The notes: a model not told the origin generated them from the sequence alone. Counted from the first letter of the stretch, positions 3,911 to 31,529 are shown. The stretch is DNA of 48,944 nt from Planctomycetes bacterium GWC2_45_44 (GCA_001824555.1 MHXU01000100.1:1-48944), one strand, 5' to 3'. A program made the numbers and translations.

Positions 3911-3937
3911 CTACTGACTATTGGCTACTGGCTATTA
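3911..3937 (+). repeat. 27-bp dispersed repeat, copy 1 (ctactgactattggctactggctatta)
   Basis: 26/27 identical to the reverse complement of 30231-30257. Confidence 0.85.
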
Positions 3938-3939
3938 CT

Positions 3940-4353
3940 TTACTTCTGCTCAATTACCCTGCTCACCGCTGACGGCAGAACGCGAAGCTTTGTATTATTC
4001 GCCTCGTCAATCTTAAGAACAACTTCCGTCTCGCTTACTTCAAGAACTGTGCCGAGTATCCCGCCGATGGTTTGAACTCGGTCGTTTTTCTTCAGAGCCA
4101 TTATCATTTGTTTTTGCTGCTGTTGTTTCTTGCGGGGGCCTCTGAACATTATGAAGTACATAACTACAAAAATCAAACCGATGAAAATAAACTGCTGCCA
4201 CTGTGCTTTTGGATTTTTCACAACAGGTTTTGCAGCCCCGTTCGGGTCTGTCTGTATAGTTGTGCCTGTTGTCTGCTGACTTTCCGCGGAAATATCATCA
4301 GCCGTAATTACCTCCGGTACATTTGCTTCTGCCAAAATTCCTAAAACTTCCAT
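3940..4353 (-). CDS. yajC: preprotein translocase subunit YajC
   Basis: Single TM followed by KKNDRVQTIGGILGTVLEVSETEVVLKID, the typical YajC core. Sits between tgt and secDF. Confidence 0.85.
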   Translation of the reverse strand: MEVLGILAEANVPEVITADDISAESQQTTGTTIQTDPNGAAKPVVKNPKAQWQQFIFIGLIFVVMYFIMFRGPRKKQQQQKQMIMALKKNDRVQTIGGILGTVLEVSETEVVLKIDEANNTKLRVLPSAVSRVIEQK

Positions 4354-5518: not shown

Positions 5519-5616
5519 TTTGGCGGAACTATAAGCCGAAAAAGAAGTTTTTACAATGGAATTCGGTATTGCGTTTCAATTATTCCCCGGCAATGATACT
5601 TGCAATAGTAATAAAA

Positions 5617-7520: not shown

Positions 7521-7637
7521 CGTAATACTTTAGCTAAGTGCCAAATACAACTTGTCATTCCCGCGAAAGCGGGAATCCAGTTTTGTAGGGTGGGCTTTAG
7601 CCCACGCTGTTTTTTCTACATTCGGCTAAAGTATTAC
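7521..7637. mobile_element. MITE-like unit carrying two hairpin modules
   Basis: 13-bp terminal inverted repeat gtaatactttagc (7522-7534) / gctaaagtattac (7625-7637). Flanked by the direct repeat tactcaattt (7511-7520 and 7635-7644), whose right copy overlaps the right TIR by 3 nt. The interior holds the gtcattcccgcg-gaaa-gcgggaatc and gtagggtgggc-ttta-gcccacgc modules. Confidence 0.45.
7554..7611. terminator. two GC-rich stem-loops between convergent genes (likely bidirectional terminators)
   Basis: tcccgc-gaaa-gcggga (within 7554-7578) and gtgggc-ttta-gcccac (within 7584-7611), followed by ttttt. Lies between the stop of the plus-strand MTHFR fusion and the stop of minus-strand greA. Confidence 0.5.
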
Positions 7638-8116
7638 TCAATTTGCGATTTAGCGATATCAATCACTTCAAATTGAAATTCGCCGCGAGGGTTCTTTACT
7701 AACGCCTTTTCTCCCATCGCGAGCCCATGAATAGCGTCTCCGACCGGCGAATGAATCGAAATGCTTCCCGTATCAATATCAGCATCGTGAGGCCCCAGCA
7801 ATTGATAGGTTACTTTCTCCTGGGTATTCAGATTCAGCAAAGTTACGATGGTGCCGAACACGGCTTTATCGCATTGAACTTTCGTGCAATCCACTTTATC
7901 TGACCGGTTTATTTGCGCCCTCAATTCCCCCAGCCGCCCTTCGATAAAGCCTAACTGCTGGCGACCGTAAATATACTCGCCATTTTCCCTTAAATCGCCC
8001 TGCTCACGAGCTTCACTGACTCTTTTCCTGACTTCAACCGCTTCTTTCTCGAGCTGGAGCAGTTCCTCCTTAAGTTTATTAAAACCCGTTAGCGATATTG
8101 GCACAAGATCAAACAT
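7634..8116 (-). CDS. greA: transcription elongation factor GreA
   Basis: 160 aa. N-terminal coiled coil with an acidic tip (REQGDLRENGEY) and a C-terminal FKBP-like domain. Confidence 0.9.
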   Translation of the reverse strand: MFDLVPISLTGFNKLKEELLQLEKEAVEVRKRVSEAREQGDLRENGEYIYGRQQLGFIEGRLGELRAQINRSDKVDCTKVQCDKAVFGTIVTLLNLNTQEKVTYQLLGPHDADIDTGSISIHSPVGDAIHGLAMGEKALVKNPRGEFQFEVIDIAKSQIE

Positions 8117-8905
8117 CCTGATACATCTCCATATATAATCGGTTATAGTTAGCCCCCAGCTTTATGCTGGGGGTTGCTTCGTGTCGATTCCCGCGACCGC
8201 TGTCATTGCGAGGAGGCCGAAAGGCCGACGCGGCAATCTCGTTTTGTAGGGTGGGCTTCAGCCCACGCGGTTATATCTGCATTCTCTTTTCATCAGACAA
8301 AATACCAAATATGCCTAAAGTATTCAAGCTCTTTCCCCGCAAAATCCTGTTGCACCCCTCCGCAAATACCAGCGTCTGCCATTTTAAAACCTGCGATTTC
8401 AAATTCCATTCATCTGCCCTGAAAGGGCATAACATATCAGCCCAGGGCAACGCCCTGGGTTAAAAAACAGTAAAAAATCCTAAGCCCTGAAAGGGCGTAA
8501 TAATCAATGTAGGTTTGTGGTTCAGTTCAGTAGGGTGGACAGATTTTCTGTCCACGTGGTTTTGCTTAGCCCCCGCACTTGCCTGTCCGTCCGAAGACTT
8601 GGCGAAGGCGGATGGCGGGGGTTGTTTTAAATTTCAAATCTCGATTCTCGTTTCTCTATTCCGTGCTTAGCCCCGCCAATACCTTGGCGGGGTCATCAGA
8701 GCCACAAGCGTAAGCGCGCGGTCATAAAAAATTGTAGGGTGGGCTCTTTTGTCGCGTCGTAGCTGTTAGCGAAGACGGAAGCCCACGCGGTTTTGTTTCA
8801 TTCTCCCTCATCAGAGCCGCAAGCGTAAGCGAGCGGTCATTTAATATCTCATCGCCATCGGCGATTCCACAATTATTCATTATTCATTATTAATTATTCA
8901 CTGTT
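8117..8905. repeat. array of at least 12 GC-rich hairpin modules in an 873-bp gene-free gap
   Basis: Modules at 8149-8175, 8202-8240, 8245-8272, 8416-8428, 8441-8459, 8484-8496, 8530-8562, 8566-8623 (nested), 8667-8693, 8733-8792 (nested) and 8845-8872. The same families recur at 7554-7611, 13569-13583, 26221-26528 and 27134-27643. Confidence 0.85.
8302..8370 (+). repeat. 69-bp dispersed repeat, copy 1
   Basis: About 83% identical by hand alignment to 13595-13664 in the same orientation. Both copies lie shortly downstream of a gcccacgcggtt half-module. Confidence 0.75.
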
Positions 8906-8989: not shown

Positions 8990-9988
8990 CTATTTATTCC
9001 TTTTTTTTAGTTGTTTCTTATAGAATTCGTCATAGTCATTTGGCTGACGAGGGTAATAAGGTATTTCATTCAGCGAGTTAACGGTAATATAAAGGTCTTT
9101 ATATTTACGTTCAATTGAATCGAATGTAAATATCTGAGGCAACTGTTCTAAATATTTATCTATTGTTCCAAATTGATCTATCGGTATGAAATCAATCTTA
9201 TTCTGAAGATCTTTAAATACGATGGCTTGGAGAAAGTTAATATGCGTGCCGTTACAAGATTTAATTATCTTTCTTTTAAGTTCTTGTGAAGTATTTATGC
9301 CAAATATAATAGAAGAAATACAATTTAGTGACAATGGGAAAAGATATAGACCATCCCTGTCGCGATATGATGTCCTTTGTGCAGGAGGTTTATAGGTATC
9401 GCACTCGGTAAGCTGCCGAATAATTCTGTATTCTCTTTCGTATCTCCAATGCAGGGTCTTTCTTAGAAAAATGGCATCCCTGATTTTATGGAATGGGATA
9501 CTATTTCCTCCTTGATATAGCCTGTCCATATTAATCATATAGTCTCTGACATATTTGACTTTGTGTGCTCTGAGATTAACCCCTTCTATTAATTGTAATG
9601 TTGGCTTTGATTTGTCAGGTATGTTGAATTCTATGAGAATGCCATTGTGTCCATTTGCGTAATGACACCACATTTCAAAAGAATATGGATTGTCCGTAAG
9701 AGAGAGCATTCCAAAGTTGTTTATTCTTTGTTCTATCAAATTTAGACGTTCCCAATCGTGTATACTTGGGAATGTAATCTCATTGTATTTAAACCGTTTG
9801 AAGTTATCACCTTCTGGATCGAACCTAATAGCAGGATTGAACTCTAAAGGGTCGTTTAGTGCAGCAGGCTGTGTAAACCGTATTTTGTGATTCAGAAAGA
9901 TATCATCTATTATTTTAGGAGAATCTGATACGTATTTAAATAGTGTCCTTAGTTGTTCAATTTTCTTTTTTTCTGTACCCATCAACAC
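8990..9988 (-). CDS. DUF2971-family protein
   Basis: The motif string FTQPAALNDPLEF ... MWCHYANGHNGILIEF ... KTLHWRYEREYRI matches my recollection of the DUF2971 consensus. The gene is AT-rich; one sampled 60-nt line gave about 32% GC. Confidence 0.65.
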   Translation of the reverse strand: MLMGTEKKKIEQLRTLFKYVSDSPKIIDDIFLNHKIRFTQPAALNDPLEFNPAIRFDPEGDNFKRFKYNEITFPSIHDWERLNLIEQRINNFGMLSLTDNPYSFEMWCHYANGHNGILIEFNIPDKSKPTLQLIEGVNLRAHKVKYVRDYMINMDRLYQGGNSIPFHKIRDAIFLRKTLHWRYEREYRIIRQLTECDTYKPPAQRTSYRDRDGLYLFPLSLNCISSIIFGINTSQELKRKIIKSCNGTHINFLQAIVFKDLQNKIDFIPIDQFGTIDKYLEQLPQIFTFDSIERKYKDLYITVNSLNEIPYYPRQPNDYDEFYKKQLKKRNK

Positions 9989-10276
9989 TAATCCATATGA
10001 TATATCGTGGTATTATCAACTCTATTTGATATTAGTTTCGTTTCTTAATAGTATTATTTCAAATACCTGATAAATTACATATAGAAAAATTAAAGATTCA
10101 AAGGAAAAGGGTAAAAGTTAAAAGTGAAAAAAGTGTAGTTGGTTCGGGAACACCTACTTATTAATCAAGTTAAACAATTTATTTGCCAGTTCCGTGTCTA
10201 AGGTTTTTAAGATTTTGTATTGTTCGAGGGCTGAACCTATTTTTCTCATCCTCCCGATTATCGAGCATTCGGTTAT

Positions 10277-11923
10277 TCAATCACTAGCAAATCTGAGACT
10301 GTCTGCGGCCTTTTTAAATTTTAACTCAGATCTAAATAGTGTTTTCGCCGGGCCATACCCTTGAACCATATAAATTTTAGAACCATGTTTAAGGATTTTC
10401 GATAATTGAACCATTTCTGTGGTTTTCGAGGGATTTAATAATGGTATCCGATACCAACCATCTAAATCTTTTTCCACCCCCGCCAATTCTCTTTCAACTT
10501 CCACAGCCGTCTTATTCGGATAAAGAACACTTACATCGAAGATACCGAGGGAATGCCCCGCTTTGTTACTAAATATAACAATCAAACCTGTTTTAGGATT
10601 GTTTGTTTTATAAACATCCATATCCGTAGGTGGCCTTATTTGTAATCCTAATACTTTATCCTCCCAAGGTTCTTCTTTCAGTTGTGGTGCCAGTGGTATT
10701 AGATTGAAAGAGGCCACAAATTTATCAAATGAATAATCTGGTACTACGGTATTAGGATAAACCATTGTTAGCGACACAGAATCACCATCAACGATAAAAA
10801 CAATCCCTTTATGTAATATATCAACACCTTCAAAGACATCAATATATTCATAATTTCTTGCATTGAAACCACGAAAAACAAGTTGGTTGTTTGTGATAAC
10901 CCTACTATTTTCTGAAATCAACAGTCTGCCCGCTAAATGGCTATCCAAAAAAATCTTTTGAGATTCAGCACTTAAGAGTTTTTTGTCCAAATAGTTTAGA
11001 AAGACATTATATGACACCAACCCGTCGCTCGAGTTTGCTTGATAGTTCATAGTAGTTTGAATATCGCCCGTTACTTTGGTCAATGTAGGTTGCGAGGGGA
11101 ATGTAACGGAAAATCCGTTTTTATCCGATGTGTATTTAGTTGGAGCATTATCTATCCTCTCAGCGAATTCCTTGATTACATCATCTTTTGATATTGCTCT
11201 GAGTTCCCGGGCAATTTCAGATGCTATCTGGCTTGTATCAACATTTGCATCTATTGTCAACGAAGCGTATGATTCAGATAAGGCTGTTTTGGCGGTTTCT
11301 TTTAGGGCAATGATTTTGTCGCTGGGAATCGCAAAATTGAGATTCTGGCCTTTTGTTACGATAAGGGTAGCAATGCCTATCACCTCACCTTTGCTGTTGA
11401 TAACCGGACTTCCGCTTGAGCCGGGCGAAATCGGAACGGTTATCTGGAGTATTTTGCCAAAAGCCGGAATATCTCGAACTGCCGATACGATACCGCTCGA
11501 TACGGTTGATTCAAGGCCGAGGGGATTACCTATAACAAAAATATCCTCACCTTCAGAAGGTACATTCACGCTAAGGTTCAAGAATGTTACATTGGCATCC
11601 GGCAGGTTCACGACGAGTTTGACAATATCGGCCTCGGTGTCTTTGGCAACAATACCCTGCACCGGATATTCATTGCCTGTCGAGGTTTTAACAGTCGCCG
11701 AATAAGCGCCTTCGATAACGTGATAGTTCGTGATAAGCCTGCCTTTATTATCTATGAAGAATCCGCTTCCCTGACCGATTGGCTTGTTGTCCTTATCGAA
11801 AGTCGAAATAAGAACGACGCTGGGCTTAACTTTTTTTACTAAATCTACAAGTTTTTCATCAGCCTTTGCGACAGTCGAACCAACCGCAATTATACAGACC
11901 AATATGAGAGTTAGTTTCCTCAT
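10277..11923 (-). CDS. secreted trypsin-like (S1C) serine protease with an unassigned ~330-aa C-terminal region
   Basis: Signal peptide MRKLTLILVCIIAVGSTVAKA. Catalytic triad contexts TNYHVI, EADIVKL and GSSGSPV. No PDZ-like segment recognisable after aa ~215. Confidence 0.8.
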   Translation of the reverse strand: MRKLTLILVCIIAVGSTVAKADEKLVDLVKKVKPSVVLISTFDKDNKPIGQGSGFFIDNKGRLITNYHVIEGAYSATVKTSTGNEYPVQGIVAKDTEADIVKLVVNLPDANVTFLNLSVNVPSEGEDIFVIGNPLGLESTVSSGIVSAVRDIPAFGKILQITVPISPGSSGSPVINSKGEVIGIATLIVTKGQNLNFAIPSDKIIALKETAKTALSESYASLTIDANVDTSQIASEIARELRAISKDDVIKEFAERIDNAPTKYTSDKNGFSVTFPSQPTLTKVTGDIQTTMNYQANSSDGLVSYNVFLNYLDKKLLSAESQKIFLDSHLAGRLLISENSRVITNNQLVFRGFNARNYEYIDVFEGVDILHKGIVFIVDGDSVSLTMVYPNTVVPDYSFDKFVASFNLIPLAPQLKEEPWEDKVLGLQIRPPTDMDVYKTNNPKTGLIVIFSNKAGHSLGIFDVSVLYPNKTAVEVERELAGVEKDLDGWYRIPLLNPSKTTEMVQLSKILKHGSKIYMVQGYGPAKTLFRSELKFKKAADSLRFASD

Positions 11924-12002
11924 TTATTCTGCCTTTCAAAACCTCAATTTTTATCAGGTACAAGTATATTCTGCGGCATATGAATAATCAATAAAAAACA
12001 TT

Positions 12003-13388
12003 CTCAAACTTAGGGGTTTTCCTGTAATGACAGACGCAGCAAATCTTTATACCGCCAAAAACAGGTATTTACCGCTTCCGTCAGGCCCGCTTTCAAACGA
12101 TACAAAATAAATTCCGGCTTATCCGGCAGCGGTTGGCTAAGGTAAACTAATCTATCACAGATACTCGGAGCTGTTTCGACAAGCCAGCCTAAATATGTCA
12201 TCACCAGTACCGCCAGCAATACCAGCCGGCAAATCGCATTCCAGCTAAACGTTCTTATTTTTTCAAGGTTCACCTGATTTTTCAGGAAGCGAATCGCCTC
12301 TTCACATTCCCACCTGCGTATATAGAGACGCAATACTTTTTCGGCATCATCAAAATCCTCCACAGCCAAATTCGTCAGCAGCATCATCGGCTTATCCACG
12401 CCGGGGAGTCTGGAAACAACCATTGTCAATTCTTCCTCCCGTTCGGGCAGACGAACTTTTGTCCAGCCTATCTGTGTTATACGAATTGTCGGTTTGCCGC
12501 GACGTTTGACAAGTTTATGAAAACGATGCGGCGATGGAACCTGCTCGGCGAGTGAATCTGCACGAATGACTGTTTGCCCGGAACCCTCGTAAACCACCGT
12601 CAAATTCCTGTTTCCTACAAGTCTGGCAACAAAGCGAAAGTGATTATCCAGCCAGTCGTCAAACATAACCCGGCTGTCAAACCCTCTGTCGATTACCAGT
12701 ACACCGTGGTTGCCTGTAAGCTCAAAAATCTTATGGATGGCATTAAGAACTATGGGGTTTTGTCCGGGGCTGCAGGGTTCTTCATGGCTGAACGGTTCCA
12801 GCAATAACGGAACAGGATTTTTTCGGCTAAGCGATGCGTACAATTCAACTAACCAATAACCATTGACCAACTGGCCGCTGCTGCCATCGCGAACCGTAGC
12901 TATATAATCCATCTTCTTTGCCAGCGGCTTGGCAATGTCTGAAAGGTCGAGAATTATCGGCGTATCATCCTTAATAAATGGCAGCCATGTATGCGGCAGT
13001 TCAGCCTTAATTTTATTGTCGAAGCTGCTGTTCTTTACAAGGTGAGCTTCGAGTCTGTCTAACCGTGAGAGGAATTTTGTCCGCTGGTTGGGCAGATGCC
13101 TTGCCATCTGACAGACGATGGGCTTGCCGCAGCGAATAAGACCTATGAGGCTGTCTCGAATGAACTTTTTGTCCGGCAGTGGTAAATTGTTTGTGATTTT
13201 TTTGAGAAAGTCGTTTAGGTTTGACGATATAGATTCCATTAAAGCAACGCGTTTAAGCATAACGCACCTCCTTGTGTAATAAGGGTTTACAAAATTGGTT
13301 TCTATCCCCTTATATCGTCAAACACGAGGAGTGCGCTTTGAGTGAAATACCCCCTTAAAAAACTTCCTAAAAAAGCCCTAAGTTTGAG
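12003..13388 (-). mobile_element. intact IS4-family insertion sequence (1386 bp)
   Basis: Terminal inverted repeats ctcaaacttaggg (12003-12015) / ccctaagtttgag (13376-13388), extending imperfectly to ~22 bp. 8-bp direct repeat aaaacatt at 11995-12002 and 13389-13396. Single DDE transposase ORF inside. Confidence 0.85.
12010..13260 (-). CDS. IS4-family DDE transposase
   Basis: VLVIDRGFD (first D) and an exact Y-x2-R-x3-E-x6-K signature (YIRRWECEEAIRFLK). The stop codon lies inside the left IR. Confidence 0.85.
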   Translation of the reverse strand: MLKRVALMESISSNLNDFLKKITNNLPLPDKKFIRDSLIGLIRCGKPIVCQMARHLPNQRTKFLSRLDRLEAHLVKNSSFDNKIKAELPHTWLPFIKDDTPIILDLSDIAKPLAKKMDYIATVRDGSSGQLVNGYWLVELYASLSRKNPVPLLLEPFSHEEPCSPGQNPIVLNAIHKIFELTGNHGVLVIDRGFDSRVMFDDWLDNHFRFVARLVGNRNLTVVYEGSGQTVIRADSLAEQVPSPHRFHKLVKRRGKPTIRITQIGWTKVRLPEREEELTMVVSRLPGVDKPMMLLTNLAVEDFDDAEKVLRLYIRRWECEEAIRFLKNQVNLEKIRTFSWNAICRLVLLAVLVMTYLGWLVETAPSICDRLVYLSQPLPDKPEFILYRLKAGLTEAVNTCFWRYKDLLRLSLQENP

Positions 13389-13487
13389 AAAACATTTGCG
13401 TAATTCCGCGTTAATCCGTGTCTAAAAAATCTTCGTGCCTTTGTGCCTTTTTTACAAAACCGCATCAAAATTGATTAAAAACAACAA

Positions 13488-13523
13488 AAATTCCGTGAAA
13501 TCCGCGCAATCCGCGGTTATACT
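13488..13523 (+). promoter_or_regulatory. 35-nt promoter-like motif, copy B (aaattccgtgaaatccgcgcaatccgcggttatact)
   Basis: GTGAAA, 17-nt spacer, TATACT. Contains the tandem aatccgcg-c-aatccgcg. Lies 266 nt upstream of the comEC ATG. Confidence 0.35.
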
Positions 13524-13594
13524 AATCTCTGTGATCTCTGCCTGCCCGACATAGCTTTAGCGGCGGCGGAAGCCCACGCGGTTAAGATTCAAAG

Positions 13595-13664
13595 ATTACC
13601 AAATATACCTGAAATACTCAAGCCCTTTCCTCACAAAATCCCATTGCACACATCCGCAAATACC
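13595..13664 (+). repeat. 69-bp dispersed repeat, copy 2
   Basis: See 8302-8370. Confidence 0.75.
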
Positions 13665-26198: not shown

Positions 26199-26562
26199 GA
26201 GACCTCTAAAAACACACCTTGTCATTCTGAACGTAGTGAAGAATCTTCTTCTGTCATTGCGAGGCCGCTTCAGCCGTGGCAATCTTGTTTAGTTGTAGGG
26301 TGGGCTCGCCTGCCCTGAGCTTGTCGAAGGGTCAGCCCACGCTGTTTTTTTGTCATTCCCGCGCAGGCGGGAATCTATCCCTTTATTCTGCCCTGTGCGA
26401 AAACTGTCATTTCGACAACAACAGAGCCGCGACAGTAATGGAGCGGTCAATTAAAATCATATCGGCGACCTGTCTTGTCGTAGTTTTAACGAAGATAGAA
26501 GCACAGCGAAGACCCAAGGCGATTCCACAATTTTGATATTTAATCTTTGATTTTTGATTTTA
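26199..26562. repeat. hairpin-module array
   Basis: Modules at 26221-26245, 26253-26285, 26294-26346 (nested), 26352-26375, 26406-26452 and 26453-26528 (nested), then A/T words at 26537-26562. Confidence 0.85.
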
Positions 26563-27069
26563 TTATGCAAACGCCGCGATTAGGAAAACAATCCAGATAA
26601 TAACGCCCACGATAAATTTTGCGCCAGTTCCGAGTAATTGGCCAACGCCTGCTCCGGTTGCGGTTTTCAGAGATTGGTTAAGTTCCTTGCCTGACCTTTT
26701 TTCGACTATTAACGCCGCCCCGCCTGCGCCGAGGGCCGCTCCGAGAAGCGTGCCGAAAATGGGGATTGGGATTATTACCGTTCCTGCGATTGCGCCGATT
26801 ATCGCGCCGCCGATTGCCGCAAACATTGCTTTTTTGCCGCCGCCTGCCGCTTTTGCTCCGCCTGCGCCGGAGACAAACTCAATAATTTCGCCGATAATCG
26901 CAAGAACGATTGCCGCGATTATGGTATAGACGCCGAATACGCCCTTTTGCCAAATGGCAAAGAAAACAACCGTAATAATCATCAGCCAATTGCCTGGCAG
27001 AATAAAAAAATTCAGCCCAAGCCAAACGGCATTGACGATTGTAAGCAGTGTAAGCCAGAAATAAATCAT
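26563..27069 (-). CDS. DUF456-like small integral membrane protein
   Basis: 168 aa, four hydrophobic Gly/Ala-rich segments, LPGNWLM near the N-terminus. Family assignment is from memory only. Confidence 0.5.
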   Translation of the reverse strand: MIYFWLTLLTIVNAVWLGLNFFILPGNWLMIITVVFFAIWQKGVFGVYTIIAAIVLAIIGEIIEFVSGAGGAKAAGGGKKAMFAAIGGAIIGAIAGTVIIPIPIFGTLLGAALGAGGAALIVEKRSGKELNQSLKTATGAGVGQLLGTGAKFIVGVIIWIVFLIAAFA

Positions 27070-27777
27070 AAGTTCATTCTAAACGCTTTTGCTCGCCCTC
27101 TCAATAACTAAATCAGACATATATATTCAGCGCTTAGCCCTGCCATCTTGTATGGCAGGGTTCATAAAATCTCATCGCCGTAGGCGATTCCTTTGTCATT
27201 GCGAGCGCAGCGCGGCAATCTCACTGTAAAATCAAACATCAAATATAAAAAATAAAAATGACATATTAAAAATCAAAAATACCCACCCCTCTGCTTAACT
27301 GGCGGCCACTGTCATTCCCGCGACCTGTCACGGCGTAGCGTAGCGAAGACGGAAGGCGGGAATCCACACTTTTCTCACTTTCCCACCTTTCATACTTTTC
27401 ACACCTTTTTTTGTCATTTCGACAACAACAGAGCCGCGACAGCTTGTCCCGCCATAGCCTTTGGCGACGGCGGATGATGGAGCGGTAATTTTTAGGTTAG
27501 CCCCACCATCACTATGGTGGGGTTCTTAAAATCTCATCGGCCGCCTGTCTCGGCGACCTGTCTTGTCGTAGTTGGTTTCTGCGTAGCCTTGTGCGAAGCA
27601 GAATAACGAAGACATAAGCGCAGACGAAGACGGATTCGGCGGGTTTTTGCCTTATATCCTTACGTCCTTTTACTGATAACTGCTTTTCTGCCACAGAGAA
27701 CACAGAGTTCACAGAGAAAACAAAACCATCAAGGCCGTTCACACTGTTTAATGAACAGACCCAACGCGAATGTTTTT
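27070..27777. repeat. hairpin-module array flanking the FRG/MTase cassette
   Basis: Modules at 27134-27162, 27164-27192, 27195-27222, 27311-27365 (nested), 27413-27490 (nested), 27497-27524 and 27527-27643 (multiply nested), plus a cacagag x3 array at 27691-27721. Confidence 0.85.
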
Positions 27778-28587
27778 TTAACAGCACTGCTGCCCCTGTT
27801 TATTTCTGATGTTAAAGCCTACGATGTCAGCACCAGGATAGTCGAGACTCTTTGAATGGATATTCATAGTGCGCAATCGATTGAGAATTTCCTGCTTCCA
27901 TGAAGCAGGTACAATGATGCTCCCATATTGCCCTTCGCCAAGGCAATCTGCAATCAATTCGCTATGTTCAGCTCCAAGGCGACCCGCAACAGTAAAGAAT
28001 CCTTGCTGCATTTTAATCCTATTAAATGGTACTACGCAATGGAGTTTTGTAATCCATGCGGGACCATCGTTGTTGAAAGCAGTGTCATTCAGGTTGACCT
28101 CGTCATTTGAGGCGGTGTACTGCTTGAGTCCGTAGCCGTGCCATCTGCGACCGACCTTATGCTCAAACGCGTTTTGGTCAAACCACCGGACGGCACCATC
28201 CTTGTCGTGTTCGTAGATCGAAGCGAAATAGAGCGCAACCCATCGTGAATGAGTCCAGTCCAGCAATCGCGTGGGGGTACCATAGTGCTGGAGAATCGGG
28301 AGTGCCTTGATACGATCTTGGGGCATTGGCCCCTGCAAATACCCTTTCTCGGTGCTATCGCAGAACTCTTCGGCGAGGCGACAGAACTTGACGATTATGG
28401 CGGCTTCTTCGGCAAGACGGGCTTCATAGGCCATATCACGGGGAAGTATCCGGTCCAATGAAGAAAGGAGAGGCCGTGAGATGTCCGGCTGGCCTCGATA
28501 TGCAACAAGTTCATCCGGTTTGGCGTGTATCACGAACGACTGCCACAGGTCATCGACAGTAGCAAATCTCTTGTCTTGCCAAGCCAT
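27778..28587 (-). CDS. FRG-domain protein
   Basis: VAYRGQPD (the FRG-type motif) and LQHYGTPTRLLDWTHS, both typical of the FRG domain. Lies 19 nt downstream of the MTase gene on the same strand. Confidence 0.7.
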   Translation of the reverse strand: MAWQDKRFATVDDLWQSFVIHAKPDELVAYRGQPDISRPLLSSLDRILPRDMAYEARLAEEAAIIVKFCRLAEEFCDSTEKGYLQGPMPQDRIKALPILQHYGTPTRLLDWTHSRWVALYFASIYEHDKDGAVRWFDQNAFEHKVGRRWHGYGLKQYTASNDEVNLNDTAFNNDGPAWITKLHCVVPFNRIKMQQGFFTVAGRLGAEHSELIADCLGEGQYGSIIVPASWKQEILNRLRTMNIHSKSLDYPGADIVGFNIRNKQGQQCC

Positions 28588-28606
28588 TTGGGATCTCTCA
28601 TTAAAT

Positions 28607-30130
28607 TTATGCCAGTTTGTAAGCGATTTGTTCTTCCAATATATCTTTCACCGTCAGCGCGATAATGCTCTTGCCGGTCTTTTTGAAAAACGCCTGTATC
28701 TCGCTCATCGCGTCAGATGAGAAATCAAACGAAACAAAAAATCCCTTCTGCCGGTCTTCGCGCATCATCACCGCCTCGAAAGAATCTATATCAGGCCTGC
28801 CTGCCCTGTCCTTCTGCTTGACCTGGATAGGATACCAAACATCCATAAATTCCAATTCGCCTTCCGTCTTCTTCGGCGTTGCCGACACAGGGTAAATCCT
28901 GCCGTCAATCCCCATATCGCCCACCTGCGCCTTATTCGGCCTGCCCCCAAGCGCGATAACCGCCCAGTTCTCAAATTCAAACGGCGGCAATTCCCGCAAT
29001 TTCTTTTCACTCCACGGCAAATCTCGAACCACAAACCCGCGACCAATCCGCCAGAGCTTGTCATCTTCTTTCACACCGCAAACATCGCGCATCCGTTTCG
29101 CCATCACACGGCACGCCGTCGGCGAAACATCAATCCCAATCCACTGCCGCCCCAAATTTTCAGCGGCAACCAACGCCGTCCCGCATCCGCAAAACGCATC
29201 TAATACAATATCATTCTTGTTGCTTGAAGAATTAATAATGCGTTCAAGTAGGGGAATTGGTTTTTGTGTTGGGTAGCCGAGTGATTCCATTGCTTGGCTA
29301 TTCACAGGGGGAATATCATCCCAAGAATCTTGAAGGGGAACGCCCTTCATTTCATCTAGATACTGAATTAGTCGTGGCATACCTGTCTTTGTAAATGTGA
29401 TTCTACCTTTTGCTATTAATTCGTCAACACCCTCTTGTGCCCAACTCCAATGGCGACCAACCGGTGGCTTGATAATTCCTTTATCACCAAATTTGCGGGC
29501 TGGACCTTCTCCAGGAGCACTACAAGAAACCAATTGATATGCACGACCATCCTTATCCACACTAGAGTAATGCGATTTGATATAACTTTCGGCATGTGGA
29601 ACGAACTGTTGATTCCATATATAAGGCTTGCCTGCAACATAATAGAAAATGACATCATGAACACAACCGTACTTTTTCGGATCATTGTGTGAAAAGTGAC
29701 GACGCCAAACAATTTCATTTTGAAACTGGTTTTCTCCAAAAATCTGGTCGAGCATAATTTTGACATAGTGCGATGCGTGCCAGTCGCAATGATAGTAGAA
29801 CGAACCGGTTTTCTTTAAAACGCGGTGGAGTTCTTCGCAGCGTGGCCGCATAAATTCGATATATGCTTTTGTCGATGCGTGCCGGTCATCGAATGAGCGT
29901 TTTTCCTTTGTCTCACCCCAGAATACTTCATAATTGCGGTTGGAATTAAATGGTGGGTCGATATAAATAAGGTCAACGCAGTTTTCGGGGAGTTTCTGTA
30001 ATTGTTCAAGATTATCGCCGCAGTATATTACCCGCGTATCCACCAATGCCGATGGCCTGCCTTGAGTCGTGCCGATGGGCTTACCTGCCAGTGCTGACTT
30101 TACTGAATCTGCCGCTGTTTTTTTAGCCAT
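28607..30130 (-). CDS. beta-class N6/N4 DNA methyltransferase fused to a C-terminal Mrr-like PD-(D/E)xK domain
   Basis: Motif IV DPPF (aa 58-61, nt 29948-29959) precedes motif I FCGCG (aa 313-317). C-terminal aa ~380-490 reads FEFENW...GDMGIDG...IQVKQK...GFFVS..FSSDA, the Mrr_cat pattern. Confidence 0.9.
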   Translation of the reverse strand: MAKKTAADSVKSALAGKPIGTTQGRPSALVDTRVIYCGDNLEQLQKLPENCVDLIYIDPPFNSNRNYEVFWGETKEKRSFDDRHASTKAYIEFMRPRCEELHRVLKKTGSFYYHCDWHASHYVKIMLDQIFGENQFQNEIVWRRHFSHNDPKKYGCVHDVIFYYVAGKPYIWNQQFVPHAESYIKSHYSSVDKDGRAYQLVSCSAPGEGPARKFGDKGIIKPPVGRHWSWAQEGVDELIAKGRITFTKTGMPRLIQYLDEMKGVPLQDSWDDIPPVNSQAMESLGYPTQKPIPLLERIINSSSNKNDIVLDAFCGCGTALVAAENLGRQWIGIDVSPTACRVMAKRMRDVCGVKEDDKLWRIGRGFVVRDLPWSEKKLRELPPFEFENWAVIALGGRPNKAQVGDMGIDGRIYPVSATPKKTEGELEFMDVWYPIQVKQKDRAGRPDIDSFEAVMMREDRQKGFFVSFDFSSDAMSEIQAFFKKTGKSIIALTVKDILEEQIAYKLA

Positions 30131-30230
30131 TTTTCCTCACATAAAATATATAAGATTTTACCCCAATAGTATCCATTAAAACTCCTTTTTTGTCAACAAG
30201 TTCAGTTATCAGCGAAATCAGCGTCAAAAA

Positions 30231-30257
30231 TAATAGCCAGTAGCCAATAATCAGTAG
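30231..30257 (-). repeat. 27-bp dispersed repeat, copy 2 (inverted)
   Basis: taatagccagtagccaataatcagtag is the reverse complement of 3911-3937 with one mismatch. Confidence 0.85.
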
Positions 30258-30460
30258 TCAAATTCTTCGTGTCCTTCGTGGTAAAAATCCGCGAAATGCT
30301 ACTCTGCGAAGTAGCGACTTCGCTACGAAGCACGAGTCAGCGTCTAAAAAAATATATCTCTTTTTTCTCTGTGTCTCTGTGGTGAAAAAAATATTCCAGA
30401 ATTATTTCATCCTGAAAAAAACTTGCAAAAACACCCTCAAAACCGCATCAAAACTCGCAA

Positions 30461-30496
30461 AAATCCGTGAAAATCCGCTCAATCCGCGGTTAAAAC
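30461..30496 (+). promoter_or_regulatory. 35-nt promoter-like motif, copy C (aaatccgtgaaaatccgctcaatccgcggttaaaac)
   Basis: Third copy, same orientation, 269 nt upstream of the alsD ATG. Confidence 0.3.
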
Positions 30497-30764
30497 CGTC
30501 AAAAAGTCGCAAAAACTTTTCATTTTTTGCAAAAAACTTGCGCCTCTTTAATATCCAGAATCGTTTTTTATGCCCCAAACCCCCGTTTTCCCTCAATTTC
30601 GTGGAAAAAAACTTCGAAAAAATGCGCAAGTTTTCCAAAAACGATTTTTTTAATCTTCAATTTCTTTAATTTTCCGCAACACTTTAGCCGACTGTCGAAT
30701 ACGACTTCATTATTGCTTTATACTCAAAATTCACATAAACTTACCGCTTCTTTTGGAGAAAATT

Positions 30765-31529
30765 ATGAGAAAATTATTCATAATTCTGGCGTTGGTGTTT
30801 TTTGCCGGGTGTCTGCCTGCGGGAAGAAATCAGATTACCCAGACATCGACCATTGATGCCCTGCTGGCCGGAGTTTATGACGGCGATATGACCTGCGGCC
30901 AATTGCTGAAATATGGCGACTTCGGTATCGGAACATTCGACCGGCTCGACGGCGAAATGCTCGTTTATCAGGGCAGGGTATATCAAATTAAATCCGATGG
31001 CAAAGTATATCTGCCCGCTGCGGCGACTAGAACGCCATTCGCGGCAGTTTGCGATTTTAAATCCGATATGGAATTTTCACTCAAATCCACGGACTATAAA
31101 GCCGTTCAGGCGAGCATTGACGAAAAAGTTCCAAATCAAAATCTATTTGCCGCGGTTGAAATTGTGGGAAAATTCAAACATATCAAAGTTCGCAGCGTAC
31201 CTGCCCAAAACAAACCTTATCCGCCATTGGCGCAGGCGGCGGAAAAGCAATCCATATTTGAAATGAACGATGTCTCCGGCGTAATCGTCGGATTTAGAAC
31301 GCCTCAATTTGTCAAAGGTGTGAATGTGCCGGGCTGTCATTTTCATTTTTTGAGCGACGACAGAACACAGGGCGGCCACATTCTTGATTTTGAACTTATA
31401 GAAGGCTCGTGCAAAGTTGATTTGTGCAATAAATTTCTGCTGCTCCTGCCGGAAAATGATTCGCTGAAAGATATTGACCTGTCACAGGATAAATCAGCCG
31501 AGCTGCATAAAGTTGAACAGGACAACTGA
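30765..31529 (+). CDS. alsD: alpha-acetolactate decarboxylase with a lipoprotein-type signal peptide
   Basis: STIDALLAGVYDG...YGDFGIGTFDRLDGEM and the Zn-His cluster HFHFLSDDRTQGGH. The ATG at 30765, preceded by ggaga, gives MRKLFIILALVFFAGC (lipobox). The track TTG start 30753 is less likely. Confidence 0.88.
   Translation: MRKLFIILALVFFAGCLPAGRNQITQTSTIDALLAGVYDGDMTCGQLLKYGDFGIGTFDRLDGEMLVYQGRVYQIKSDGKVYLPAAATRTPFAAVCDFKSDMEFSLKSTDYKAVQASIDEKVPNQNLFAAVEIVGKFKHIKVRSVPAQNKPYPPLAQAAEKQSIFEMNDVSGVIVGFRTPQFVKGVNVPGCHFHFLSDDRTQGGHILDFELIEGSCKVDLCNKFLLLLPENDSLKDIDLSQDKSAELHKVEQDN

Follow-up and report, generated by a model that had tools for sequence, protein, structure and literature searches.

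The question raised by this stretch of DNA, 48,944 nucleotides from Planctomycetes bacterium GWC2_45_44 (GCA_001824555.1, MHXU01000100.1:1-48944) and referred to here in its full length as the window, is whether two neighbouring minus-strand genes constitute one new defence system or two separate modules that share a locus. One of the genes encodes a DNA methyltransferase with a nuclease-type tail of its own (the methylase), and the other a protein with an FRG domain. A first-pass annotation had viewed them as an undescribed protect-and-kill pair, in which the FRG protein would be the effector or sensor. The explanation favoured here, to which we assign a probability of roughly 0.58, is that two defence-type modules have been stacked: they would have been acquired together, would be transcribed together and would work independently, with no new coupled system. 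The window has the affinity of a Sedimentisphaerales-like (Phycisphaerae) metagenome-assembled genome, and both proteins are also encoded on contig DNRR01000016.1 (GCA_003499905.1). The features on which the argument depends are as follows.

28607 to 30130, minus strand: methyltransferase-nuclease gene, an open reading frame (ORF) of 507 amino acids specifying a single chain with the nuclease-type tail at its C-terminus
28588 to 28606, minus strand: spacer of 19 nucleotides from the methylase stop to the FRG start, atttaatgagagatcccaa
27778 to 28587, minus strand: FRG gene, specifying a stand-alone protein of 269 amino acids, PADLOC family PDC-S15
30168 to 30196, minus strand: promoter-like site TTGACA-17-GATACT, 38 nucleotides upstream of the methylase start, a consensus match only

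Two minus-strand genes 19 nucleotides apart had been reported by the first-pass annotation, and the ORFs and the spacer bear this out. The operon-like arrangement that it described also stands as likely: with the promoter-like site (30196 to 30168) upstream of the methylase, and no terminator-like site seen when the interval between the two genes was searched for one, co-transcription is plausible.

The methylase is repeatedly lost beside intact FRG genes

The survey covered 160 loci with FRG relatives from genome and metagenome collections, plus further contigs with close relatives, and L-numbers below denote surveyed loci. No relative of this methylase adjoins any of the distant FRG loci (about 150, with 25-37% identity). 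The 13 close FRG loci are divided among those with an intact pair (three), those with a scarred or replaced methylase (six), and those with no trace of the methylase (four: L007, L009, L087 and L200). The intact pairs, in the window, L085 and L198/199, lie in three different chromosomal contexts and have an equal 19-nucleotide junction, the spacer being conserved in L198 and of equal length in L085. Linkage of the sort that a genome-neighbourhood survey had been proposed to reveal is thus not general, as only 3 of 13 close and 0 of about 150 distant FRG loci have the intact pair. The six scarred or replaced methylase genes are as follows.

L005: last 66 nucleotides of the methylase gene kept
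L006: last 82 nucleotides of the gene kept
L086: last 25 nucleotides of the gene kept
L201: 90 nucleotides of the 5' end fused to the last 30 nucleotides
L203, 2691 to 4801: interior replaced, the first 190 and last 60 nucleotides of the methylase flanking a 307-amino-acid NucS_C-domain gene directly upstream of FRG
L008, 3960 to 7652: interior replaced by the two-gene PADLOC candidate PDC-M03, with PDC-S14 after FRG

Two of these loci, L203 and L008, preserve the ends of the methylase around a foreign interior, and this suggests that the methylase ends may act as recombination anchors. In L008 the inserted genes are PDC-M03A, which is HipA_C-like (E 2e-38), and PDC-M03B, which is HIRAN-like (E 2e-23), and the gene after FRG, PDC-S14, encodes a GIY-YIG plus RAMA protein; by its gene content, L008 is a small defence island. 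Most of the other close FRG loci have housekeeping neighbours. The NucS_C protein of L203 was considered as a possible relative of the Mrr-type tail of the methylase, and this was ruled out, as BLASTP shows no similarity between them.

From the intact pairs with their equal junction in three contexts, and from the methylase scars upstream of FRG, it follows that the pair is ancestral in a small clade of Phycisphaerae, and that loss or replacement of the methylase took place there on several occasions, with breakpoints that differ. Throughout, the FRG gene was kept: its ORF is intact in 13 of 13 close loci, and pairwise comparison of methylase-less loci gives a ratio of nonsynonymous to synonymous substitution rates (dN/dS) of 0.12-0.32. 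FRG is under purifying selection. Moreover, the methylases of the three intact pairs differ in their recognition domain, which is 26-32% identical, and P0086, to which the window's methylase is most closely related, is found without FRG. The idea of a protect-and-kill pair, with methylation restraining a harmful FRG protein, is disfavoured by these losses in at least six loci, by the differing recognition domains, by P0086 and by the lack of linkage among the distant loci.

Domain content of the two proteins

The methylase is made up of three parts, the second of which lies within the first.

29102 to 29977, minus strand: methyltransferase domain, amino acids 52 to 343, Pfam N6_N4_Mtase (PF01555), E 2.7e-49
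29345 to 29704, minus strand: variable middle segment, amino acids 143 to 262, presumed target-recognition domain
28610 to 29050, minus strand: Mrr-type PD-(D/E)xK tail, amino acids 361 to 507 (147 residues), assigned from Mrr_cat and invariant residues

In the methyltransferase domain motif IV, DPPF (amino acids 58-61), comes before motif I, FCGCGT (amino acids 313-318), and by this order the enzyme is of the beta class. It probably targets N6-adenine, a prediction drawn only from the DPPF motif. PADLOC MTase_II matches the 507-residue protein (E 4.8e-76), and the sequence matches in the PDB are CcrM, M.MboIIA, M.RsrI and the Mod subunit of EcoP15I. The middle segment, amino acids 143-262, is 26-32% identical to its counterparts in L085 and L199, between flanking segments that are 77-90% identical, and 95% identical to that of P0086. 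The target-recognition domain of beta-class enzymes occupies this middle position, and the segment is presumed to be such a domain and to be swappable.

With regard to the tail, residues E385, D405, D409 and Q436-V437-K438 are invariant among homologues of 51-100% identity, which fits an intact Mrr-type D...QxK site, and the L199 copy of the methylase scores 23.4 bits against Mrr_cat. Structure prediction offers weak support for a nuclease: a Foldseek search with a model of the tail gave only matches below significance, the best being the N-terminal domain of Rpb5 (E 0.02-0.08), which we take to belong among the PD-(D/E)xK folds, with EcoT38I and FokI at E 0.75. The tail alone found no match when searched against PDB sequences. 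A beta-class methyltransferase with a C-terminal nuclease module had been recognised in the first-pass annotation, and the Pfam matches, the motif order and the invariant residues agree with it. The argument that it built on this protein, namely that the lack of an endonuclease points to FRG as the effector, does not hold, as the methylase has an invariant Mrr-type site of its own and is widespread as a solitary gene.

The methylase-Mrr family is indeed large, with more than 7,992 proteins at E<1e-10, and the best 120 of these are mostly 70-91% identical to the window protein and about 500 amino acids long. Close relatives are found on IMG/VR viral contigs (19 of them), and more distant ones in actinophages and on rhizobial plasmids, where the annotation is simply DNA methyltransferase. 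No neighbour family was found to recur beside the methylase homologues; P0086, at 91% identity, has other genes downstream and no FRG. In combination, the conserved catalytic core, the conserved nuclease and the swappable recognition domain, all in a solitary gene, lead us to infer that the methylase-Mrr protein is a self-contained single-chain restriction-modification enzyme. At two further loci, L165 (5634-7016) and L167 (6698-8889), methylase homologues of 91% and 73% identity are followed by same-strand ORFs of 200-244 amino acids; these ORFs have no match in Pfam or PADLOC, and could be other cargo in the position of FRG.

The FRG protein matches the Pfam FRG domain (PF08867) at amino acids 28-129 (E 1.2e-16; 61.8 bits, cut-off 25) and, over its full length, the PADLOC PDC-S15 model PDLC04938 (amino acids 7-263, E 2.7e-27). 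Both of the motifs by which the domain was initially recognised, VAYRGQ and LQHYGTPTRLLDWT, are present. The former is the N-terminal (F/Y)RG motif, whose R31 and G32 do not vary among 28 homologues; T106, R107, D110, W111, T112, R190, Q194 and the C-terminal Y250/D254 are likewise invariant. A profile search with FRG retrieved 20,610 representative clusters, mostly of stand-alone proteins of 260-300 amino acids. Nothing besides FRG was found when the profile was run against the PDB and the 28 members were scanned against Pfam at E values up to 10.

It had been thought that FRG lacks an assigned activity and that the module is undescribed. PADLOC, however, already lists the family as the candidate PDC-S15, and the literature places FRG in the ADP-ribosyltransferase (ART) superfamily: PMC9503650, citing Burroughs and Aravind 2020, describes it as belonging to this superfamily and as an effector of prokaryotic immunity with potential NADase activity, and a preprint lists FRG as an ART-like family (bioRxiv 10.1101/2024.07.30.605764). 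A literature search for a published phenotype of PDC-S15 found none, and the family is a candidate only. The fold check that had been proposed for the protein was successful in one respect, as a good AlphaFold model was obtained (predicted local distance difference test score, pLDDT, 82.7; predicted template modelling score, pTM, 0.82), but no significant match to an NADase or nuclease fold was found. Entries of ART proteins (1aer, 2hw2 and 9iaf) occur in the Foldseek output only at E 2-4, with exotoxin A and Arr among the noise. As Foldseek gave no significant match, the ART assignment comes from the literature alone. If the ART triad (R-S-E or H-Y-E) is tentatively mapped onto the FRG protein, R31 would be its first residue, the invariant T106 and T112 would correspond to the second, and Q194 would fall at the position of the Glu.

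How do the two proteins compare with known systems? In Type IIC/IIG single-chain enzymes such as MmeI, Eco57I and BpuSI, the nuclease is N-terminal and the methylase is of the gamma class. The window protein resembles them as a single polypeptide that unites methylase, PD-(D/E)xK nuclease and recognition domain, the last of these being swapped between close relatives, and differs from them in its beta-class methylase and C-terminal Mrr-type nuclease, with cleavage predicted only. Because of this different architecture, the methylase-Mrr protein is said to work like the single-chain enzymes, and not to share their lineages. With Type III Mod proteins and the CcrM/YhdJ type the window's methylase shares class and motif order, and its best PDB and NCBIfam sequence matches are of this kind, whereas the locus is without a Res subunit and the C-terminal domain is unlike that of CcrM. 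The tail, in turn, is similar to Mrr and other Type IV endonucleases in its D...QxK-type motif and its marginal Mrr_cat match; unlike those enzymes, which cut modified DNA and are unfused to a methylase, it is fused to one, and this fusion implies a different target logic. The FRG protein is a typical PDC-S15 (PF08867) member in its full-length match, its FRG domain, its (F/Y)RG motif and its stand-alone size of about 270 amino acids, and departs from the family in its likely co-transcription with a methylase-nuclease in a small clade. Among ART-superfamily effectors (RES toxins and the Frg clade), it would be alike in the invariant first-strand arginine, R31, and the conserved Thr-rich second strand, and different in having Q194 at the expected Glu position and no significant Foldseek match.

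Coupled, independent or not defence at all

If two stacked modules are the explanation, the recognition domain of the methylase-Mrr protein would determine which DNA site is targeted; host DNA would receive the mark of the methylase, and DNA lacking this mark would be cut by the Mrr-type tail. The FRG protein would be an infection-triggered effector, NAD+-consuming or ADP-ribosylating, that stops phage growth; within the clade it was inherited paired with the methylase, and would nonetheless be independent of it. All of these enzymatic activities, and the role of both proteins in defence, we infer.

Several observations weigh against this explanation. The flanks of the pair in the window consist of housekeeping genes and form no defence island. 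The Mrr_cat match of the tail (amino acids 381-480) is marginal, its 21.4 bits barely exceeding the cut-off of 21, and the AlphaFold model of the tail alone is poor (pLDDT 63, shallow alignment). As for the FRG protein, Foldseek of its model against the PDB and BFVD gave no match at E<0.1, which does not confirm an ART fold, and Q194 is invariant at a position where a catalytic Glu would be expected. In at least one genome, DATKZT01, which contains the FRG-plus-scar locus L006, an intact methylase paralogue resides on another contig (L169); loss of the methylase in cis is therefore no proof of its absence in trans. Moreover, the conserved 19-nucleotide junction and the likely co-transcription leave room for functional coupling.

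The last of these points leads to the alternative that the pair is one coupled system, in which the methylase-nuclease would mark or sense DNA and FRG would be the downstream effector or sensor, triggered, for example, by unmethylated DNA or by cleavage products; FRG may, in other words, be a methylation-aware effector coupled to the methylase-nuclease. Such a scenario would account for the shared strand, the short spacer and the lack of a terminator between the genes, for a junction kept in three genomic contexts, and for the scars that trace nearly all close FRG genes to a methylase-FRG pair. It would also suit the tail next to FRG, which among FRG-linked methylases is 83-90% identical and so more conserved than the recognition domain, and the trans copy of the methylase in DATKZT01. 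Yet a coupled effector is difficult to reconcile with the six or more loci in which the methylase, with varying breakpoints, disappeared or gave way to other genes and FRG stayed intact and under purifying selection, or with recognition domains that differ among the linked methylases. The occurrence of P0086 (91% identity) without FRG downstream, the absence of the methylase beside the roughly 150 distant FRG loci, and the presence of a nuclease in the methylase itself point the same way, and coupling is considered unlikely.

Less likely again is the view that there is no defence module here, the methylase being an orphan or phage-derived epigenetic enzyme with a tail that only binds DNA, and FRG a passenger with a function outside defence or with no role. 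The methylase family does occur on viral contigs, and in actinophages under the plain name of DNA methyltransferase, and its sequence conservation across phyla is very high; the flanks in the window are housekeeping genes, the other cargo found at the same chromosomal site (a beta-helix protein and a beta-lactamase-family gene, described below) is not defence-like, and PDC-S15 is a candidate family. Against this stand the nuclease residues, whose invariance would not be expected of a DNA-binding relic, and the hypervariable recognition domain, which fits a diversifying restriction specificity. Likewise, FRG is found among other defence candidates in L008 and is under purifying selection.

Both protein families are already catalogued. 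Should the explanation by two stacked modules hold, the segment would combine known family members and offer hardly any new concept: a further candidate for a single-chain restriction-modification enzyme would stand beside a further FRG/PDC-S15 gene. The locus is still useful as test material. About 20,000 representative clusters make up the very large FRG family, and the natural series of intact pair, scarred pair and methylase-replaced pair supplies ready-made controls for FRG acting alone. Members of the methylase-Mrr family are numerous and, apart from the swappable recognition domain, highly conserved, and the family has apparently gone uncharacterised; if it proves to be a restriction enzyme of the beta class in a single chain, it would extend the known architectures.

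The insertion site and its CACAGAG arrays

The pair lies in the spacer between two unrelated genes, together with short inverted arrays of the word CACAGAG.

26563 to 27069, minus strand: DUF456 gene, the neighbour beyond FRG
30753 to 31529, plus strand: acetolactate decarboxylase gene, the neighbour beyond the methylase
27117 to 30398, no strand assigned: segment that the empty site of L207 lacks, the insertion as a whole, by blastn comparison of the window with L205 and L207
27692 to 27716, plus strand: left array, CACAGAG three times at 9-nucleotide spacing, 62 nucleotides downstream of the FRG stop
30367 to 30381, minus strand: right array, CACAGAG twice, 16 nucleotides inside the right edge of the insertion as defined against L207

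The flank beyond DUF456 holds an ATP synthase operon and genes for an ECF sigma factor and a pilin-like protein, and the flank beyond acetolactate decarboxylase two Amt/PII pairs and glutamine synthetase. The first-pass annotation had noted the lack of a Res/helicase gene, a specificity subunit and a controller, and there is in fact no Res/helicase, HsdR, HsdS or other specificity subunit, or controller gene among the neighbours of the cassette, those next to it being DUF456 and acetolactate decarboxylase.

The spacer between these two genes is variable, and related genomes show it in five states. In L207 it is empty, the DUF456 and acetolactate decarboxylase genes being only 455 nucleotides apart (7546-8000). 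In the closest relative of the window, L205 (5867-8000), whose flank is 96.7% identical at the nucleotide level, it holds two unrelated ORFs of 229 and 99 amino acids, for which Pfam and PADLOC gave no family match. L209/L210 (L209 2-3777) carry a 213-amino-acid ORF and a large beta-helix protein, L212/L213 (L212 5655-7000) a beta-lactamase-family gene, and the window the methylase and FRG. From the cargo of L205, L209/L210 and L212/L213 it is apparent that the site is general and not reserved for defence genes. Compared with L205, the exchanged cargo spans approximately 27718-30157, limits that were obtained by blastn, with the boundary at 30158 taken from reading the sequences directly; the promoter-like site upstream of the methylase falls within sequence common to the window and L205. 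By these comparisons the segment of about 3.2 kb is a horizontally acquired insertion. The notion of a former mobile cassette is upheld to the extent that there is an insertion at a variable site, but not with respect to terminal repeats common to all copies or a recombinase, no recombinase gene being present among the ORFs of the insertion.

Could the inverted arrays nevertheless be the working ends, or recombination sites, of a cassette exchange that brought in both genes? Inverted CACAGAG arrays do lie on both sides of the cassette, as had been pointed out, and the word occurs 8 times in the window, with 2.3 copies expected by chance. In L205 the arrays, searched for in this and other loci by regular expression, likewise bracket the unrelated cargo in inverted orientation, and no arrays were found in the empty site of L207. 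A three-unit array ending in GGC(A/T)AA is located 47-620 nucleotides downstream of the cargo in L165, L198, L201 and L205, and a 275-nucleotide segment adjoining the insertion is inverted in L207. These features would suit array-based exchange. The same cassette in L085, however, has no arrays, L198 has an array downstream only, and L209/L210 and L212 have other cargo at the same site and no arrays. The left array, moreover, is part of a flank common with L205 (window 27670-27717, L205 6417-6464, 89.6% identity) and lies outside the exchanged segment, and cassette copies are homologous at the DNA level only as far as their coding ends. No recombinase gene lies nearby, and the one insertion sequence (IS) of the window has unrelated 20-nucleotide terminal repeats. 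Similar word arrays (ATCCGTG, ATCAGCG and CTTCGTG) are also common in intergenic DNA. Array-based exchange thus appears very improbable, and the suggestion that the arrays may mark the cassette borders fails on L085, on L198 and on the shared left flank.

Our reading is that the arrays are dispersed intergenic repeats, specific to the lineage, whose presence in a variable spacer is fortuitous. The cassette had been described as lying between the densest repeat stretches of the window; repeats are indeed found there, but the same families fill other long spacers of the window, with short repeat families at 5602, 7569-8870, 13455-13664 and 26334-26485 and a third, degenerate array at 13527. It is at best a long shot that the CTCTGTG/CACAGAG arrays are sites of a cassette-exchange hot spot in Sedimentisphaerales that shuffles small cargos, such as methylase-nuclease plus FRG in the window and the unrelated 229-amino-acid gene in L205, with the conserved 5' and 3' ends of the methylase gene, between which PDC-M03 and a NucS-like gene were placed in other loci, as further anchors; if this were true, the hot spot would be an integron-like system without a recognisable integrase.

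Other features of the repeat-rich spacers may be recorded here. Dispersed repeats, some with identical copies, are present to either side of the DUF456 gene as well as in more remote spacers: 26405-26435 equals 27412-27442, 26462-26485 equals 27550-27573, 3911-3941 is inverted relative to 30227-30257, and further copies are at 5602, 13474 and 30447. Many of these repeats consist of tandem words of 8-9 nucleotides, NTCNGYG, with a run of A at the end. The segment inverted in L207 is an A-rich, non-coding one, at 30399-30673 in the window and 7601-7875 in L207 (85% identity), with the same orientation in the window and L205; in some assemblies it is called as a 96-amino-acid gene. Two ORFs that lie wholly in the repeat-rich spacer, 27512-27787 (minus strand, 91 amino acids) and 30379-30669 (plus strand, 96 amino acids), are probably spurious, the former reading the CACAGAG array as SVNSVFSV.

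The IS of the window, at 12001-13390, looks complete, with a 416-amino-acid DDE_Tnp_1 transposase (12010-13260, minus strand) between inverted repeats of 20 nucleotides and 95% complementarity (12001-12020 and 13371-13390). These terminal repeats are unrelated to the CACAGAG arrays, and an origin of the arrays as ends of this IS was therefore ruled out. Adjoining the IS is a stretch of low GC content (8990-11923; 0.34, compared with about 0.47 elsewhere), which is probably another acquired island and contains genes for a DUF2971 protein (8990-9988, minus strand) and a 548-amino-acid trypsin-like peptidase (10277-11923, minus strand).

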